Assembly (NCBI GenBank): GCA_016699935.1
Contig: CP064992.1
Span: 30,001-62,000 of the forward strand
DNA: 32,000 nucleotides
Source: Candidatus Saccharimonadota bacterium
GTDB lineage: Bacteria > Patescibacteriota > Saccharimonadia > Saccharimonadales > UBA4665
Reading direction: 5' to 3'
This document shows, piece by piece, positions 6,693 through 30,135 of the stretch. Numbering within the stretch: position 1 is the stretch's first letter; each line of letters opens with the position of its first letter. Position numbers and translations under genes: made by a program. A model generated the notes under the pieces. The model searched no databases and had not been told where the DNA came from. It saw nothing but the letters and a program-made list of their open reading frames with translations.

Positions 6693-6862
6693 TTAAGACC
6701 TCTTGCAGAATAATCCGTATACCCAGAACGTGATGATTTTTGTTTCAAATTGGCAATAGCCGACAAATCGTAACCGCTGTTACGATGCGAAGGTTATTGC
6801 TCTATTTGGGACAAAAAGGGCGTGTTATGGACTACGGAGTTATTTTGTGGGGGAGGTCTTAA
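6693..6862 (-). mobile_element. 170-bp TTAA-bounded palindromic MITE-like element, copy 2
   Basis: TTAAGACCTC...GAGGTCTTAA, a near-identical copy of 1683-1851. The outer TTAA supplies the TAA stop of maf (6859-6861). Confidence 0.6.
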
Positions 6863-8341: not shown

Positions 8342-8376
8342 GATTTAGAGTTAAGAGATAAGAGTCATGAGTTAAG
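8342..8376 (+). repeat. Heptanucleotide-periodic array (AGNTAWG family)
   Basis: gatttag agttaag agataag agtcatg agttaag. It lies immediately upstream of the permease start. Confidence 0.6.
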
Positions 8377-9409: not shown

Positions 9410-9495
9410 ACCTGAGTCTAAAAGCATTCTCCTCTAGTACTTTTGTCATTCCCGCCTTCGCGGGAATGACATCCTTAGGTTCTTAAGACTCAGGT
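9410..9495. mobile_element. 86-bp palindromic MITE-like element (ACCTGAGTCT..AGACTCAGGT family)
   Basis: Terminal inverted repeats ACCTGAGTCTAAAAG / CTTAAGACTCAGGT flank the core hairpin TTTTGTCATTCCCGC-CTTC-GCGGGAATGAC. It belongs to the same family as 11181-11302. Confidence 0.6.
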
Positions 9496-9695: not shown

Positions 9696-9768
9696 TGGGG
9701 ATTGGCCAAGCGGTAAGGCACTGGGTTCTGGTCCCAGGATCGGGGTTCGAATCCCTCATCCCCAGCCA
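9696..9768 (+). tRNA. tRNA-Gln (anticodon CTG), CCA encoded
   Basis: Acceptor stem TGGGGAT/ATCCCCA, D arm GCC-AAGCGGTAAG-GC, anticodon arm CTGGG-TTCTGGT-CCCAG, T loop GGTTCGAATCC, discriminator G plus CCA. It is close to the E. coli tRNA-Gln layout. The T stem has one mismatch as assembled. Confidence 0.85.
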
Positions 9769-11180: not shown

Positions 11181-11302
11181 ACCTGAATCTCAAAACTGTC
11201 TCCCCTGTAATTTTGTCATTCCCGCGAAGGCGGGAATCCATTTCATATATCTGGATCCCAGCCTTCGTTGGGATGACATCCTAGGGGTTTTGAGATTCAG
11301 GT
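11181..11302. mobile_element. 122-bp palindromic MITE-like element (same family as 9410-9495, with an extra internal hairpin)
   Basis: TIRs ACCTGAATCTCAAAAC / GTTTTGAGATTCAGGT. The core is TTTTGTCATTCCCGCGAAGGCGGGAAT plus GGATCCCAGCCTTCGTTGGGATGAC. The ORF-track peptide ..VIPAKAGIH.. is just its translation. Confidence 0.6.
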
Positions 11303-18299: not shown

Positions 18300-18600
18300 A
18301 ACTGCGGCCGTTTCGGCCTCATGAAAATTATCGCGTTAGCGATATAACTAGAGACGGCCATGCGGAGGCTCACGGCTCCAATGTTGTCATGTTTTACAAC
18401 TTCCGAAAGGCGGCGCGACTTGTTTGAATGGAGGCTAGTATTGCCGGTGGCAATACTAGCCGGAGTGAGTTGTCGCGTCGGTTGTAAAACTGGACAACAT
18501 TTGACCGAAGATGGAGCTTGTGGCCTGGTTTTTGGTCCAGGCCTTTTTGGCAGCAAAAGGCATGGTCGCCTGGCCGGGGCGAAACCCGGCATGACAACTG
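18300..18600 (+). ncRNA. Candidate structured RNA element, copy A (homolog of 25675-25990)
   Basis: Conserved blocks and helices are shared with copy B, and the stems show compensatory changes: 18391-18400/18481-18490, 18411-18419/18472-18480, and the hairpin 18434-18460. There is no conserved ORF. G-T pairs fit a plus-strand transcript. Confidence 0.4.
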
Positions 18601-18630
18601 AAATATGAAACAACGTCAGAAATGCCGTTT

Positions 18631-18728
18631 GGATTCCCGCCTGCGCGGGAATGACAAGGGTAGATTCTTCACTTCGTTCAGAATGACACGATGTGGACAT
18701 ATAGATGCTGAAATAGATTCAGCATGAC
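18631..18728. repeat. Three tandem REP-like hairpins, each ending in ATGAC
   Basis: GGATTCCCGC-CTGC-GCGGGAATGAC; GATTCTTCAC-TTCG-TTCAGAATGAC; GATGCTGAA-ATAGA-TTCAGCATGAC. Their translation gives the familiar ..VILNEVKNL../..FPRRRES.. artefact peptides. Confidence 0.6.
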
Positions 18729-18803
18729 AGCCCACGGGTATGACGGCGGTGATGAATACATCTTTCCCATACATCATTCTTCTCCCAATGCTATAGTGTA
18801 AGC

Positions 18804-20427
<1,624 letters not shown>

Positions 20428-20440
20428 TAGGGGTTAGGGA

Positions 20441-20461
20441 GTGGATGGTGGATGGTGGATG
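20441..20461 (+). repeat. Heptanucleotide tandem repeat GTGGATG x3
   Basis: Three perfect units with degenerate units on both sides. A related array on the other strand (ACGGTAG ACGGTAG GGTGTAG, 20521-20541) overlaps the stop of the convergent gene. Confidence 0.65.
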
Positions 20462-20527
20462 GATGGTCATAACATCACCGCTTCGCTAGCCTGAAGAGCC
20501 AAGCTGTTTTGTCCGAAAGCCTACACC

Positions 20528-21007
20528 CTACCGTCTACCGTCCTCGAGAATCAATACTGGGATATCATGAGATTCACGAGGTATATATTCAACCCCAGCC
20601 CAAGCGTAAGCGAGGCCGATTTTGAGAGCGTGGGGCTGAGTGGTGAGCCAGCGGTCGTACCAGCCACCACCCATTCCTAGGCGGTTGCCACCCCTGTCAA
20701 AACCGACCACTGGGACGAAAATGACGTCAAACTGGCCAGATGGAAAGACCACATTTGGTTCTGACTGGCCAATAGTGACCTGTATCTCTGGGTGTGATGC
20801 CGCTAGCCAGTCGATGATAGGCTGTGTATCTACCTCACCGAGTGATGCTAGCGAGCGGTAGACGTGTACGATCCGAACGTGCTGCCAATCTGTAGCGCCC
20901 GGTACCTTTCGCGCTATCTCTTGACTGGCCACCGCAATCTCATCCGATCCAAGCCCCATCCTACGAGCAAGCAGGTTTCGGCGGATTTCAGCTTTTTCAT
21001 CTTGCAT
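20528..21007 (-). CDS. 5-formyltetrahydrofolate cyclo-ligase
   Basis: MQDEKAEIRRNLLARR...VPVVGFDRGGNRLGMGGGWYDRWL.. is the family signature. I prefer the ATG at 21007, because the TTG at 21034 lies inside the upstream terminator. Confidence 0.8.
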   Translation of the reverse strand: MQDEKAEIRRNLLARRMGLGSDEIAVASQEIARKVPGATDWQHVRIVHVYRSLASLGEVDTQPIIDWLAASHPEIQVTIGQSEPNVVFPSGQFDVIFVPVVGFDRGGNRLGMGGGWYDRWLTTQPHALKIGLAYAWAGVEYIPRESHDIPVLILEDGRR

Positions 21008-21032
21008 AGCACCATTGTCGCACCTCAGCAAC

Positions 21033-21061
21033 AAAAGAAAAACCCCGGGCGAACCCAGGGC
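21033..21061 (-). terminator. Intrinsic terminator after the DUF1508 gene
   Basis: On the minus strand, CCCTGGG-TTCG-CCCGGGG is followed by TTTTTCTTTT. Confidence 0.55.
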
Positions 21062-21089
21062 TTTCTCCTGCTAGACAATTTTGCGTTTC

Positions 21090-21266
21090 TTAGCTGTCAA
21101 CCTCTACAACTTCGGCGTCGGCAGCAGCACGGGCGACTGCTTCGCAGCCACGAACTGCACCGTCTTTAGTGGTGTATTCTTCACCAGTGGCAACAACTTC
21201 ACCGTTACCTGCCTTTAGGCGCCATCGGTAACCACTTTTGCTTTGATAAACTTCAAACTTTGCCAT
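21090..21266 (-). CDS. YegP/DUF1508 family small protein (58 aa)
   Basis: Absent from the ORF track because it is under 60 aa. AAGGAGG lies 7 nt upstream. MAKFEVYQSKSGYRWRLKAGNGEVVATGEEYTTKDGAVRGCEAVARAA.. is the typical DUF1508 repeat. Confidence 0.8.
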   Translation of the reverse strand: MAKFEVYQSKSGYRWRLKAGNGEVVATGEEYTTKDGAVRGCEAVARAAADAEVVEVDS

Positions 21267-21374
21267 TTAATATCCTCCTTTAACTAGTATTTATATGATG
21301 CACCTAGCTGTTTAAAACTACAATAGCGAGCCAGAAAATTGTCGCTGCAAACTACAAGCGTATACTATAGTGGT

Positions 21375-24784: not shown

Positions 24785-25435
24785 CTATGAGCTTCTGCGC
24801 CAGTGGGCGATGGCGGCGTGGTTGCCGTTCTGGAGGACTTCGGGGACTTGAAGGCCACGGAAGTCGGCTGGACGGGTGTATTGGGGATATTCTATGGTCT
24901 CGTCATCGTCTTGGAAAGATTCTATCTCGGCGCTCGTTTCACCTCCCAGAACGCCTGGTAAGAGGCGAACTACACTATCTATGACGATCATGGCTGGCAG
25001 CTCGCCACCGGTTAAAACATACTGTCCTATGCAAAACTGTTCATCGATCCACTGCGTAATGCGCTCGTCATAGCCTTCGTAGCGAGGACAAACGATGATC
25101 AACTCGTCGACCTCCGCCGCCAAACGCTTAGCATCTGATTGTTTATAGATTTTACCCCTCGGTGTTGGCAGTACAATCTTGACTCTTGACTCATGACTCA
25201 TGACTCTGCTCTTAGCATGTTCTATCGCCGCGACCAGTGGTTCAACCATCAGCAACATGCCATCGCCACCGCCATATGGCGTATCGTCCACCTGCTGGCG
25301 TGGACCGAGTCCAAACTCGCGTAAGTTTATACATTCATAGGTCGCAATTCCCCGATCGACCGCTTTCCACAGCATGCTGTTACCGAGCACCCCCGTGAAC
25401 ATTTCTGGAAACAAGGTAATAATTTGTACTTTCAC
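24785..25435 (-). CDS. trmD: tRNA (guanine37-N1)-methyltransferase
   Basis: ..ITLFPEMF..VDDTPYGGGDGMLL...VCPRYEGYDERI....GQYVLTGGELPAMIVIDSVVRLLPGVLG...YPQYTRP..NGNHAAI. GTG start. The variable loop AKSRVMSHESRVK is encoded by a heptamer array. Confidence 0.9.
   Translation of the reverse strand: MKVQIITLFPEMFTGVLGNSMLWKAVDRGIATYECINLREFGLGPRQQVDDTPYGGGDGMLLMVEPLVAAIEHAKSRVMSHESRVKIVLPTPRGKIYKQSDAKRLAAEVDELIIVCPRYEGYDERITQWIDEQFCIGQYVLTGGELPAMIVIDSVVRLLPGVLGGETSAEIESFQDDDETIEYPQYTRPADFRGLQVPEVLQNGNHAAIAHWRRSS
25178..25205 (-). repeat. Heptanucleotide array AGTCATG x2 + AGTCAAG x2 inside trmD
   Basis: On the plus strand: cttgact cttgact catgact catgact. It encodes ..SRVMSHESRV.. in a loop that is variable between TrmD orthologs. 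Confidence 0.65.
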
Positions 25436-25624
25436 TTCGAACAGTGTAAACCAAAATCACCTCTGATACCAGAGGTGATTTAGTCACATAAAGCTCCCAA
25501 CGTTTTTGAATTCGTTGGCTCGCACGAGCTACTAGATGTTTTTGTTTTAACAGTTTGTCTTTTTGTAAGACTCCCACTACCCTATCATACCGAAGTAAAA
25601 AACACAAGCACGATATGATATTAG

Positions 25625-25673
25625 AGATAAGAGGTAAGAGATATGAGATAAGAATTATGAGTTATGAATTGAG
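25625..25673 (+). repeat. Heptanucleotide-periodic array (AGNTAWG family), 7 units
   Basis: agataag aggtaag agatatg agataag aattatg agttatg aattgag. It abuts the left edge of structured element B. Confidence 0.65.
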
Positions 25674-25674
25674 A

Positions 25675-25990
25675 ATGCGGCCGCAGGCTGCTAATTATTT
25701 ATCGCGTCAGCGATGTAACTAGTGGTGGCCATGCGTAAGCTCCTGGCCAGAATGTTGTCTGTTTCTACAACTTCCGACAGGCGGCGCGAGCTGTTTGACG
25801 AATAGCTGATATGCCAGTGGCATATCAGCTATGAGGAGTTCTCGCGTCGGTTGTAGAAACGAACAACACTTCTGCCAAGAGCTGGAGCCATTGGCCGAGT
25901 TTTTCTGCTTCTCTTTTGTCGGTACAAAAGAGAAGTCGGCTGGCAGGCCGAGAACTGCCTTACTACAGAAGCTATCGTGAGAATATGATT
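25675..25990 (+). ncRNA. Candidate structured RNA element, copy B (homolog of 18300-18600)
   Basis: Helices at 25761-25771/25850-25860, 25782-25790/25841-25849, and the hairpin 25804-25830, covary with copy A. It lies antisense to the rpsP-KH-trmD gene string, in the slot where rimM usually sits. Confidence 0.4.
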
Positions 25991-26065
25991 TATAGATAAC
26001 AAAAGGAAAATGATCCTAAAAGGCATGAATTATGGATCGAGTCCGGAATGACAAATCAGTAGTTT

Positions 26066-26780: not shown

Positions 26781-26899
26781 AGCTCAAAAGTGGGTGTGGG
26801 TCAGAACAATAACAGATCCAAATAGCTGGGTAATGACCAATGACCAAGGGCCAATCATTGCTTAACCCTTGGTGCGTGGTGCTTGAGGGTCCAAAGAAT

Positions 26900-28882: not shown

Positions 28883-28952
28883 AGTTTATAGTGAGTAGTT
28901 TATAGTTTTTAGGTGTATAACCTACAAACTATAAACTAAAAACTATCAACTA
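28883..28952. repeat. Inverted pair of heptanucleotide arrays (AGTTTAT... / ...TAAACTA) forming an 18-bp hairpin
   Basis: agtttat agtgagt agtttat agttttt aggtgta | taaccta caaacta taaacta aaaacta tcaacta. The stem 28897-28914/28920-28937 has one mismatch. It lies between the NUDIX stop and the rnc start. Confidence 0.65.
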
Positions 28953-29480
28953 TCCTTTCCTTTCCCTAACTTTACTCATACCGGCTAGCATGAGCTTACC
29001 GATATCTTCATATGCTATAGCGTCAACTGCTTCTGTTGCCGGCAACCACTGAATATCACTCAGCCAATCTTCTGGGTGTAGTCGGTTCGTATTGCCTAGT
29101 CCTTCGACAAGGTAGATATGCATGGTCATTAGTACTAGGGTGTGATTGCGGCGATAGCGAAAGTTAACTTTGCCGAGCCACTGCATAACCCGCATATCTT
29201 GCAGCCCAGTTTCTTCACGAATTTCCCGTTCAGCCGTCTGTTTTGGCTCTTCGCCCTCTTCAACGTGCCCCTTTGGTATGGTCCAGCGATTTTTTGCATC
29301 TTTTATAAGGAGGATTTCAACCGCTTGAGTCTTCTCGTTATGTCGAAAAACGATTCCACCTGAGGTCGTCTCACGGACAACTTCCTGAATAGCAGGGCGA
29401 CGTGTTACGAAATTTCGAAAACCTTCTATGGGCTTCTTTGATCCCCTCCATGGCTGCGAGCCGTTTTCGCTTTGCTTCAC
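28950..29480 (-). CDS. NUDIX hydrolase
   Basis: Nudix box [25 protein letters not shown] start at 29480. Confidence 0.85.
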
Positions 29481-30051: not shown

Positions 30052-30079
30052 GTAGATGGTAGATGGTAGATGGTAGATG
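30052..30079 (+). repeat. Heptanucleotide tandem repeat GTAGATG x4
   Basis: Four perfect units between rpmF and nusB, 17 nt upstream of the nusB start codon (read there as ACCATCT/CATCTAC on the coding strand). Confidence 0.7.
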
Positions 30080-30135
30080 GTAATTATCATCATGAAAGTC
30101 CTAGCAGTATTTCGACTGCTCGCTAAGGCTAAAGA

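Follow-up and report, generated by a model that had tools for sequence, protein, structure and literature searches.

Which kind of gene or repeat is represented by two related but diverged segments lying some 7 kb apart in a 32,000-nt stretch of a Candidatus Saccharimonadota genome (contig CP064992.1, positions 30,001 to 62,000; in the following the window)? A preliminary description of this DNA had reported two homologous regions with near-identical blocks, whose helices seemed to be maintained by compensatory substitutions. Here we show that these regions, named copy A and copy B (coordinates in Table 1), are members of a wider family, most likely a new family of structured non-coding RNA with a function at the RNA level.

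Both copies align over about 300 nt with a mean column identity of 77%, which confirms their homology. Within the window, the blocks CTTCCGAMAGGCGGCGCGA and TCGCGTCGGTTGTA are each found two times, in A and in B only, whereas about 0.01 and 0.2 occurrences, respectively, are expected by chance. Compared to dinucleotide shuffles, copy A (-140.4 kcal/mol, z = -8.2) and copy B (-139.2 kcal/mol, z = -9.0) both fold strongly. The paired segments quoted previously are correct, e.g. GTTTTACAAC/GTTGTAAAAC at 18391-18400/18481-18490 and CGGCGCGAC/GTCGCGTCG at 18411-18419/18472-18480 in copy A and GTTTCTACAAC at 25761-25771 in copy B, and this applies to all other coordinates and sequences given there. 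An inverted-repeat scan recovered the tip hairpins described as rewritten between the copies and yet perfect. As stated earlier, too, no reading frame is conserved, none being open throughout the family members. Neither the covariance model (CM) R1 nor nhmmer --max, run over Saccharibacteria DNA, detected further or relic copies in the window.

A pattern of two exact blocks was searched against one genome per species of 185,579 species. It matched 110 stretches, seven of which were homologous according to BLAST. All seven are located in metagenome-assembled genomes (MAGs) of Saccharibacteria or Saccharimonadales: L017 and L065 belong to one MAG, L045 and L076 to another, and L056, L092 and L094 to three separate ones. 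Scanning metagenomes added L114, L115 and L116, and synteny via TrmD homologues added L124 (from an 89% TrmD relative) and the degenerate L117/L118 (85% relative). This amounts to 11 further instances, each in a Saccharibacteria contig or beside genes of Saccharibacteria type. The matches L111-L113, from a CRISPR array and other metagenome sequences, were rejected as chance matches. Collections of viruses, phages and plasmids contained no true copies; two 18-mer matches in IMG/VR fall into a G+C-rich coding region and are chance matches as well. The element is an undescribed multi-copy family that has been seen so far only in Saccharibacteria genomes.

These additional members allowed the proposed structure to be examined across the family. 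RNAalifold, applied to plain MAFFT alignments, showed 17 to 19 pairs of the central arm changed on both sides. The full model comprises 93 base pairs in 11 helices and is based on a structural alignment of 13 sequences, which were segmented by hand with each row checked as an exact substring of its source. In this alignment 95.0% of the cells are paired, compared to 77.9 ± 0.8% in column shuffles and 34-42% with partners slid by 1-3 columns. Two-sided change affects 48 of the 93 pairs, compared to 29.2 ± 2.8 in the shuffles (none of 500 reached 48) and 7-17 with slid partners; these figures are not probabilities, as the alignment was adjusted manually to the model and the relatedness of its 13 sequences inflates the shuffle-based significance. 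Because the unguided RNAalifold runs and the slid controls agree with the model, a conserved fold is hard to avoid, the lean of the hand-made alignment notwithstanding. The concerted change of paired segments, noticed at first in A and B, thereby extends to 11 more homologues. The helices are held by compensatory change, and the junctions and internal loops are invariant.

The architecture, from 5' to 3', starts with the hairpin P1, followed by P2, a hairpin of 5-7 bp with a GNNA loop in which AUCGC/GCGAU is replaced by AUCCGCC-GUAA-GGCGGAU in L124. The joiner J2/3, (A)ACUAGUGNU, is conserved and contains CUAG. P3 (GGCCA/UGGCC) closes a domain of about 170 nt, with UGCGNAA as J3/4. Within this domain P4 (GCUCC/GGAGC) is weakly supported and contains several mismatches. 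P5 is an imperfect arm of about 24 bp with a conserved C-C mismatch, in which a whole base pair is gained or lost jointly (GGC-U-CAG/CUG-A-CC versus GGC-CAG/CUG-CC). What had been described as a 10-nt bulge keeping a GNRA-type sequence is indeed conserved, but it is not a bulge: it forms a mini-hairpin of 2 bp, which carries a GANA loop and sits at a three-way junction. The adjoining P6 is the most conserved helix, with 9 nearly invariant base pairs including one fixed G-U pair.

P6 leads to a conserved asymmetric internal loop, UUGUUUGA/GAGUU, in which tandem G-A pairs are possible and whose flanking pair covaries strongly (CG 6, GC 4, AU 1, GU 1). In a kink-turn, a 3-nt bulge followed by tandem sheared G-A pairs stands between a canonical and a non-canonical stem. 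Tandem G-A/A-G pairs could form here as well, but three U lie between the putative bulge and the G-A pairs, so that the loop departs from the canonical layout. The tip hairpin P7 carries a conserved UGCC-NNN-GGCA top on a freely covarying base of 7-8 bp. The 3' region consists of a U-rich joiner, P8, UCGCC and the terminal P9. P8 is a variable hairpin of three sequence types, with 9 of its 13 pairs covarying. Candidate long-range pairings of UCGCC (J8/9) with J2/3, J3/4 or GGCGG, and of GCUC with GAGUU, are neither supported nor excluded by the about ten sequences at hand. A small hairpin, GGCAG-NCCGAGAA-CUGCC, stands in place of P9 in copy B (25942-25959), just 3' of P9 in L114 and L115, and alone at 1661-1678 of the window.

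The plus strand is likely the one that folds. In the alignment, 31 cells hold G-U but only 14 hold A-C on this strand, to which the invariant G-U pair in P6 is added. GNNA loops appear on the plus strand only, where the other strand would read UNNC, and the minimum free energy (MFE) of the plus strand is below that of the minus strand by 9-16 kcal/mol. CM R1 scores 176-191 bits on the plus strand versus 16-31 bits on the minus strand, the model itself having been built on the plus strand. The RNA-typical loop motifs and the invariant junctions argue for an RNA over a single-stranded DNA fold.

Table 1. Features of copies A and B and their flanks in the window, and sites occupied by members of the family
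Feature	Position	Strand or orientation	Evidence
Copy A, whole structured element, P1 to P9	18303-18591	+	nhmmer E = 2.6e-73 against the family profile; CM R1 core 176 bits; z = -8.2; manual segmentation is an exact substring
Copy B, whole structured element, antisense between KH-protein gene and trmD	25676-25959	+	nhmmer E = 3e-76; CM R1 185 bits; z = -9.0
A-rich leader with about 7-nt periodicity upstream of copy A; ACTAAACAAATCC(T/A)AAATA also upstream of L017/L065	18250-18302	+	sequence comparison
P1 of copy A, G+C-rich 5' hairpin TGCGGCC/GGCCTCA	18303-18321	+	helix 1: 94% of cells paired, 2 pairs with two-sided change
P2 of copy A, hairpin TATCGC-GTTA-GCGATA, GNNA tetraloop	18329-18344	+	helix 2: 5 of 6 pairs covary
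Core domain of copy A, closed by P3 GGCCA/TGGCC; holds P4, long P5 arm, three-way junction, P6, conserved internal loop, P7 tip hairpin	18356-18525	+	RNAalifold; helices 3-9; basis of CM R1
Invariant TTCC-GANA-GG mini-hairpin, three-way junction of copy A	18401-18410	+	helix 6; unchanging in 12 of 12 sequences save the third loop base
Distal part of copy A: P6 CGGCGCGAC/GTCGCGTCG with invariant G-U; asymmetric internal loop TTGTTTGA/GAGTT; tip hairpin 18433-18461	18411-18480	+	helices 7-9
P8 of copy A, CCAGGCCTTTTTG-GCAG-CAAAAGGCATGG, type 1	18537-18565	+	helix 10: 9 of 13 pairs covary, 98% paired
P9 of copy A, terminal G+C hairpin, GCGAAA loop, then ATGACA	18572-18591	+	helix 11: 5 of 7 pairs covary
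Three tandem hairpin + ATGACA units downstream of copy A (18632-18656, 18662-18688, 18705-18729)	18632-18729	+	separate small repeat, often accompanies the element
Period-7 tandem array, GATAAGA/GAGTTAT type, directly 5' of copy B	25612-25675	+	Tandem Repeats Finder
Core domain of copy B, P3 to P3'	25727-25896	+	RNAalifold, pair counts, CM R1
P8 of copy B, CTTCTCTTTTG-TCGGTA-CAAAAGAGAAG, type 2	25908-25935	+	inverted-repeat scan; helix 10
3' hairpin of copy B, GGCAG-GCCGAGAA-CTGCC, in place of P9	25942-25959	+	repeat search
One hairpin + GAATGACA unit downstream of copy B	26034-26053	+	sequence reading
Site of A: between riboflavin-kinase (ribF) gene fragment and pgi		same strand	Pfam scan of neighbours
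Site of B: between KH-protein gene and trmD		antisense to rpsP operon	Pfam scan of neighbours
Site of L017: between tig and clpP		antisense	Pfam scan of neighbours
Site of L065: between HhH-GPD glycosylase gene and unknown gene		antisense	Pfam scan of neighbours
Site of L114: after rplL			
Site of L076: before rpsT			
Site of L116: 75 nt from rve-family integrase gene			

For the genomic context, 32 kb were read from the source genome and blocks of 8 kb from the other genomes. Three genomes carry at least two copies each, with pair identities of 77%, about 85% and 100%. Every copy is intergenic and lies amid core genes, in a different housekeeping neighbourhood per genome and in either orientation (Table 1).

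The site of copy B could be compared among relatives. L124 (TrmD 89%) holds an intact-looking 5' part at a contig end: P1 to P3 persist there, P2 in rewritten form, whereas indels abound in the flanking spacer. We count this in favour of a functional RNA, as it suggests that selection may act on the RNA and not on its surroundings. L117 (TrmD 85%) contains a decayed relic that no longer folds (z = -0.99), and the site is without the element in L125 (84%), L120 (83%) and L129 (81%). Compared to the empty site of L129, the window has 430-450 nt extra, comprising the A-rich stretch, the heptamer repeats, the RNA and a hairpin-ATGACA unit. At about 25440-25600, between trmD and copy B, there is a leader-like stretch with conserved counterparts in L117, L120, L124 and L129. 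It contains, in the window as well as in the L117 and L124 leaders, a perfect hairpin, AAAATCACCTCTG-NTAC-CAGAGGTGATTT, between A and T runs, which resembles a bidirectional terminator. The contigs L126-L128 start exactly 101 nt upstream of trmD, consistent with repeats there.

The two copies of one MAG, L017 and L065, share a tract of 100% identity that begins about 80 nt upstream of P1 and extends to UCGCC. This tract is flanked on both sides by diverged but homologous sequence, including a different P9, and its ends are not inverted repeats. Judged from the sequences, this is the signature of a probable gene conversion between older paralogues. L114 and L115 form another mosaic, with a nearly identical core and different P8 types.

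Repeats accompany many of the copies. In L114, L056, L116, L115, L094 and L124 the element is immediately preceded on its 5' side by heptamer arrays comparable to that of copy B. In L092, L094, L114 and L115 it is followed, 40-100 nt further downstream, by hairpin-ATGACA units, often with GGAGGAG in front of them. The word GAATGACA occurs seven times in the window compared to 1.2 expected. The hairpin-ATGACA unit may be a repeat of the repetitive extragenic palindromic (REP) type, a terminator, or a terminator combined with a -35 box. Both kinds of repeat are found apart from the element, too. Hairpin + (G)ATGACA units are located at 9437-9475 and 11207-11240. Period-7 repeats of the GAGTCAT, GAGATAA and TATAAAC types are present at 8347-8376, 20441-20462, 28883-28953 and 30052-30082, and within coding sequence at 25177-25207 (trmD) and 26832-26855 (the C-terminal extension of S16).

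Because the paralogues are deeply diverged with the fold kept, the junctions and loops are invariant, the loops are of RNA type and the copies are independent of their neighbours, the element looks like a functional RNA gene. Because it is multi-copy, patchy, convertible and decaying, it looks like an accessory or selfish gene. We consider it somewhat probable that the copies are accessory genes for a trans-acting structured RNA with a protein partner, located in composite intergenic cassettes, for which recombination would be the means of spread and homogenisation; as part of this reading, and at the same modest confidence, A and B would be two old paralogues of the RNA gene family. An RNA of about 290 nt would be transcribed from the plus strand as its own unit, independent of the neighbouring genes, with P1 and P9 as protective or terminating end hairpins. 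It would adopt a compact tertiary fold with GNNA loops docking into helices, and would act in trans; its likeliest role would be that of an RNA partner to a protein whose gene lies elsewhere in the genome. The genes would sit in intergenic cassettes in the order heptamer repeats, RNA, small hairpin repeats, an arrangement partly borne out by the flanks described above. Likewise partly documented, they would be duplicated, homogenised by gene conversion and relocated between intergenic regions, and could decay. Relocation via recombination through the flanking repeats is a conjecture on our side.

Several points weigh against an accessory RNA gene. Transcription, strand and RNA ends are what we infer from the DNA sequence. 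The minus strand also folds stably (z about -9). The plus strand, put forward as the RNA in the preliminary description, is thus favoured by the fixed G-U pair, the count of 31 versus 14 and the MFE, but not proven, and a strand-specific fold of single-stranded DNA would likewise fit the G-T asymmetry. No convincing sigma-70 promoter or U-rich terminator is conserved across the members, and the neighbours of the copies include no recurrent gene and no partner protein. The members were found via an exact-match pattern taken from the most conserved core, so the invariance of this core is partly ascertainment and the true range may be wider. The hand-fitted alignment of related sequences, mentioned above, belongs here, too. 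Finally, patchiness and decay show that the element is dispensable.

The main rival, which we regard as a real but lesser possibility, is likewise a point against a cellular RNA gene. According to it, the element is a non-autonomous mobile element, either structured and similar to a MITE (short for miniature inverted-repeat transposable element) or an RNA-mediated retroelement; the fold would serve its own mobilisation by a distant enzyme, as single-stranded DNA or as an RNA template, with no function for the cell. Such an element would explain at least two copies per genome in three genomes, at unrelated intergenic sites and in either orientation, and also why one and the same KH|trmD site can be occupied, hold a relic or be empty, depending on the close relative. 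The 100%-identical pair in one MAG would fit as well, as would the copy lying 75 nt from an rve-family integrase gene and the several short-read contigs that end inside the element; those ending in or beside it are L056, L094, L116 and L124, as happens at repeats. However, a scan of both copies and their flanks for terminal inverted repeats yielded internal helices only. No clear target-site duplication was found around the copies examined, whose flanks are of low complexity; short direct repeats around copy B (e.g. GAGAAT) are indistinguishable from chance in its heptamer flanks. The window copies are only 77% identical and yet both keep the full fold, which indicates long-term purifying selection on each copy and not recent bursts of transposition. 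Beside the 13 instances there is no gene for a transposase, TnpB/IscB or reverse transcriptase, the single rve gene being the only exception, and according to Pfam scans the window has no mobile-element genes and housekeeping genes only. Because the flanks of the L017/L065 tract are diverged yet homologous, gene conversion fits this pair better than a fresh insertion.

The preliminary description had set a selected RNA sharply against drifting MITE copies. Selection on the structure is supported by the strong covariation and the absence of terminal inverted repeats, and a near-identical family with such repeats was not found. The sharpness of the contrast does not stand, as the element is dispersed, multi-copy, patchy and decaying, with copies converted or duplicated. 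It resembles MITEs in being small, non-coding, dispersed, assembly-breaking and present or absent at orthologous sites, but differs from them by the lack of terminal inverted repeats and of an evident target-site duplication and by old copies under structure-preserving selection. A related and in our estimation unlikely proposal is a new class of selfish or symbiotic gene that acts at the RNA level in the ultra-small genomes of the Candidate Phyla Radiation (CPR). As a cassette of heptamer repeats, RNA and small hairpin repeats it would move from one intergenic region to another in these otherwise streamlined genomes. Its product would be an ornate RNA that is catalytic or assembles itself, or else the RNA part of an unrecognised RNA-guided or RNA-templated mobility system.

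Quite improbable is an orphan RNA of guide type, be it omega-RNA, HEARO-like or bridge-RNA-like, that would work for an RNA-guided nuclease or recombinase whose gene is distant. The omega-RNAs of HEARO/IscB and TnpB are ornate folds of about 200-300 nt in dispersed, patchily distributed copies, some without an adjacent open reading frame (ORF). The element would seem similar by size (about 300 nt), elaborate fold, dispersed copies, patchy accessory distribution and the lack of an adjacent ORF, and it has variable segments set in a conserved scaffold. Nevertheless there is no Rfam match to the HEARO or IS605-orfB motifs even at E <= 10, and no iscB, tnpB or IS110-type gene lies beside any of the 13 instances. 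Moreover, the variable segments (P2, the P7 base and P8) are internal helices paired with each other and not exposed guide loops or a terminal guide.

We give very little credit to a cis-acting mRNA element, i.e. a leader or riboswitch, an mRNA stabiliser, an intergenic insulator or a terminator. Several copies do lie in the same orientation just upstream of pgi, rpsT or an NTP-transferase gene or just downstream of rplL, and copy A contains one terminator-like hairpin, but the latter is not kept across the members and the neighbouring genes are mutually unrelated. B, L017 and L065 are antisense to both neighbours, L045 is antisense to its downstream gene, and copy A ends 210 nt before the start of pgi, with other repeats between. 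A small protein is hardly credible: the ATG in GGCCATGCG is conserved and frame +0 reads M-R-K-L-L-A..TTS(D/E)RRR(E/D)LF in most copies, but the frames starting there, including the 82-codon ORF at 18360-18608 and a 24-codon ORF in copy B, stop variably after 24 to 82 codons with tails unrelated between copies, the shared peptide stems from nucleotides invariant at all three codon positions, variable codons change along with their base-pairing partners, no Shine-Dalgarno sequence is properly spaced, and six-frame peptides of eight copies (a concatenation of 1245 amino acids) found no match among 5.8 billion predicted proteins.

Comparison with known RNAs gave no assignment. At gathering thresholds the 4227 covariance models of Rfam 15 matched only the tRNA at 9696-9765 in the window. 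A permissive scan of A and B (E <= 10) returned sub-threshold hairpin look-alikes, the best being MIR1223, a plant miRNA precursor, with 25.7 bits compared to a threshold of 77, and six other members gave nothing on the element at E <= 1. The earlier failure to recognise a known family by eye agrees with these searches. Several classes were considered and rejected. RNase P, transfer-messenger RNA and signal recognition particle RNA lack their signature motifs here, and group I or II introns their core motifs, the element being intergenic. No neighbour encodes a reverse transcriptase domain, as a retron msr-msd or other reverse-transcriptase-associated RNA would suggest, and the differences between copies are not adenine-specific, as in the template and variable repeats of a diversity-generating retroelement. 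No frame is conserved in length as for a type I toxin; the sole shared peptide is Arg-rich, lies at invariant RNA positions and has no protein relatives. A riboswitch or cis leader was rejected because no relation links the neighbouring genes, to which three or four copies run antisense.

6S RNA has a two-sided central bubble and occurs as paralogous pairs in some bacteria. The element shares a long imperfect rod-like domain with it, but has a one-sided 10-nt junction hairpin instead of the bubble, is dispensable among close relatives, is not located beside the 5-formyltetrahydrofolate cyclo-ligase gene and has no Rfam 6S match at E <= 10. In many bacteria the 6S RNA gene is located in the gap upstream of this ligase gene. 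In the window the ligase gene lies at 20528-21034 (minus strand), and the 300-nt gap upstream of it (21035-21338) contains no Rfam match.

Intergenic repeats such as bcr1 of the Bacillus cereus group, ERIC, Correia/NEMIS and BOX/RUP are non-coding, multi-copy and found in either orientation like the element, and bcr1 and ERIC reportedly keep an RNA fold by compensatory changes. The element, however, is about twice as long and multi-domain; its fold combines a three-way junction with GNNA loops and unpaired blocks that do not vary, and is not a simple palindrome. It further differs by the lack of terminal inverted repeats, the low copy number over the stretches read and the deep divergence within a genome. 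With raiA, ROOL, GOLLD and OLE, large ornate non-coding RNAs of bacteria, it has in common a complex fold with many covarying helices, conserved junctions, a restricted range and no coding potential. Unlike these it matches no Rfam family, is smaller than ROOL, GOLLD and OLE, shows no association with prophages or tRNA clusters and was not found in viral collections. The element fails the testable defining features of HEARO/omega-RNAs, structured interspersed repeats and ornate RNAs, and is a new family within the conserved structured non-coding RNAs of bacteria and the dispersed structured intergenic elements.

Some other features of the window were recorded. A 160-nt direct repeat, 96% identical, is found at 1683-1842 and 6693-6852, 5 kb apart. 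The only tRNA gene is adjoined by an 85-nt repeat (93% identical, 9817-9901/10254-10338), and extra partial copies of the tRNA 3' end are present (9726-9766/11050-11090); these repeats look like attachment-site relics left by elements that had integrated at the tRNA. The gene pgi is split into two overlapping ORFs (18804-19997 and 19769-20158) that match consecutive parts of the Pfam PGI model, reflecting either a frameshift (pseudogene) or a sequencing error.

In full-text searches of the literature we found no structured RNA or intergenic repeat described in Saccharibacteria. According to a transcriptome preprint (10.1101/2022.03.25.485537), the Saccharibacteria strain TM7x has no validated small RNA, and a survey of 224 motifs lists for this phylum only the cis-regulatory lysM-TM7 motif (PMC5737381).

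The family described here would be the first such RNA for this phylum. Saccharibacteria live as obligate episymbionts, their genomes measure about 1 Mb, and to our knowledge hardly any regulatory RNAs have been described in them. Two or more diverged copies are retained inside core-gene neighbourhoods of these strongly reduced genomes. The three-way junction, the GNNA loops, the invariant wobble pair and the conserved internal loops point to a specific protein partner or an RNA-only activity. The cassette-like dispersal, with neither terminal inverted repeats nor an adjacent enzyme, suggests an undescribed mode of non-coding gene movement in CPR genomes. The family accounts for some contig breaks, and it could enter RNA family databases and improve the annotation of CPR MAGs.

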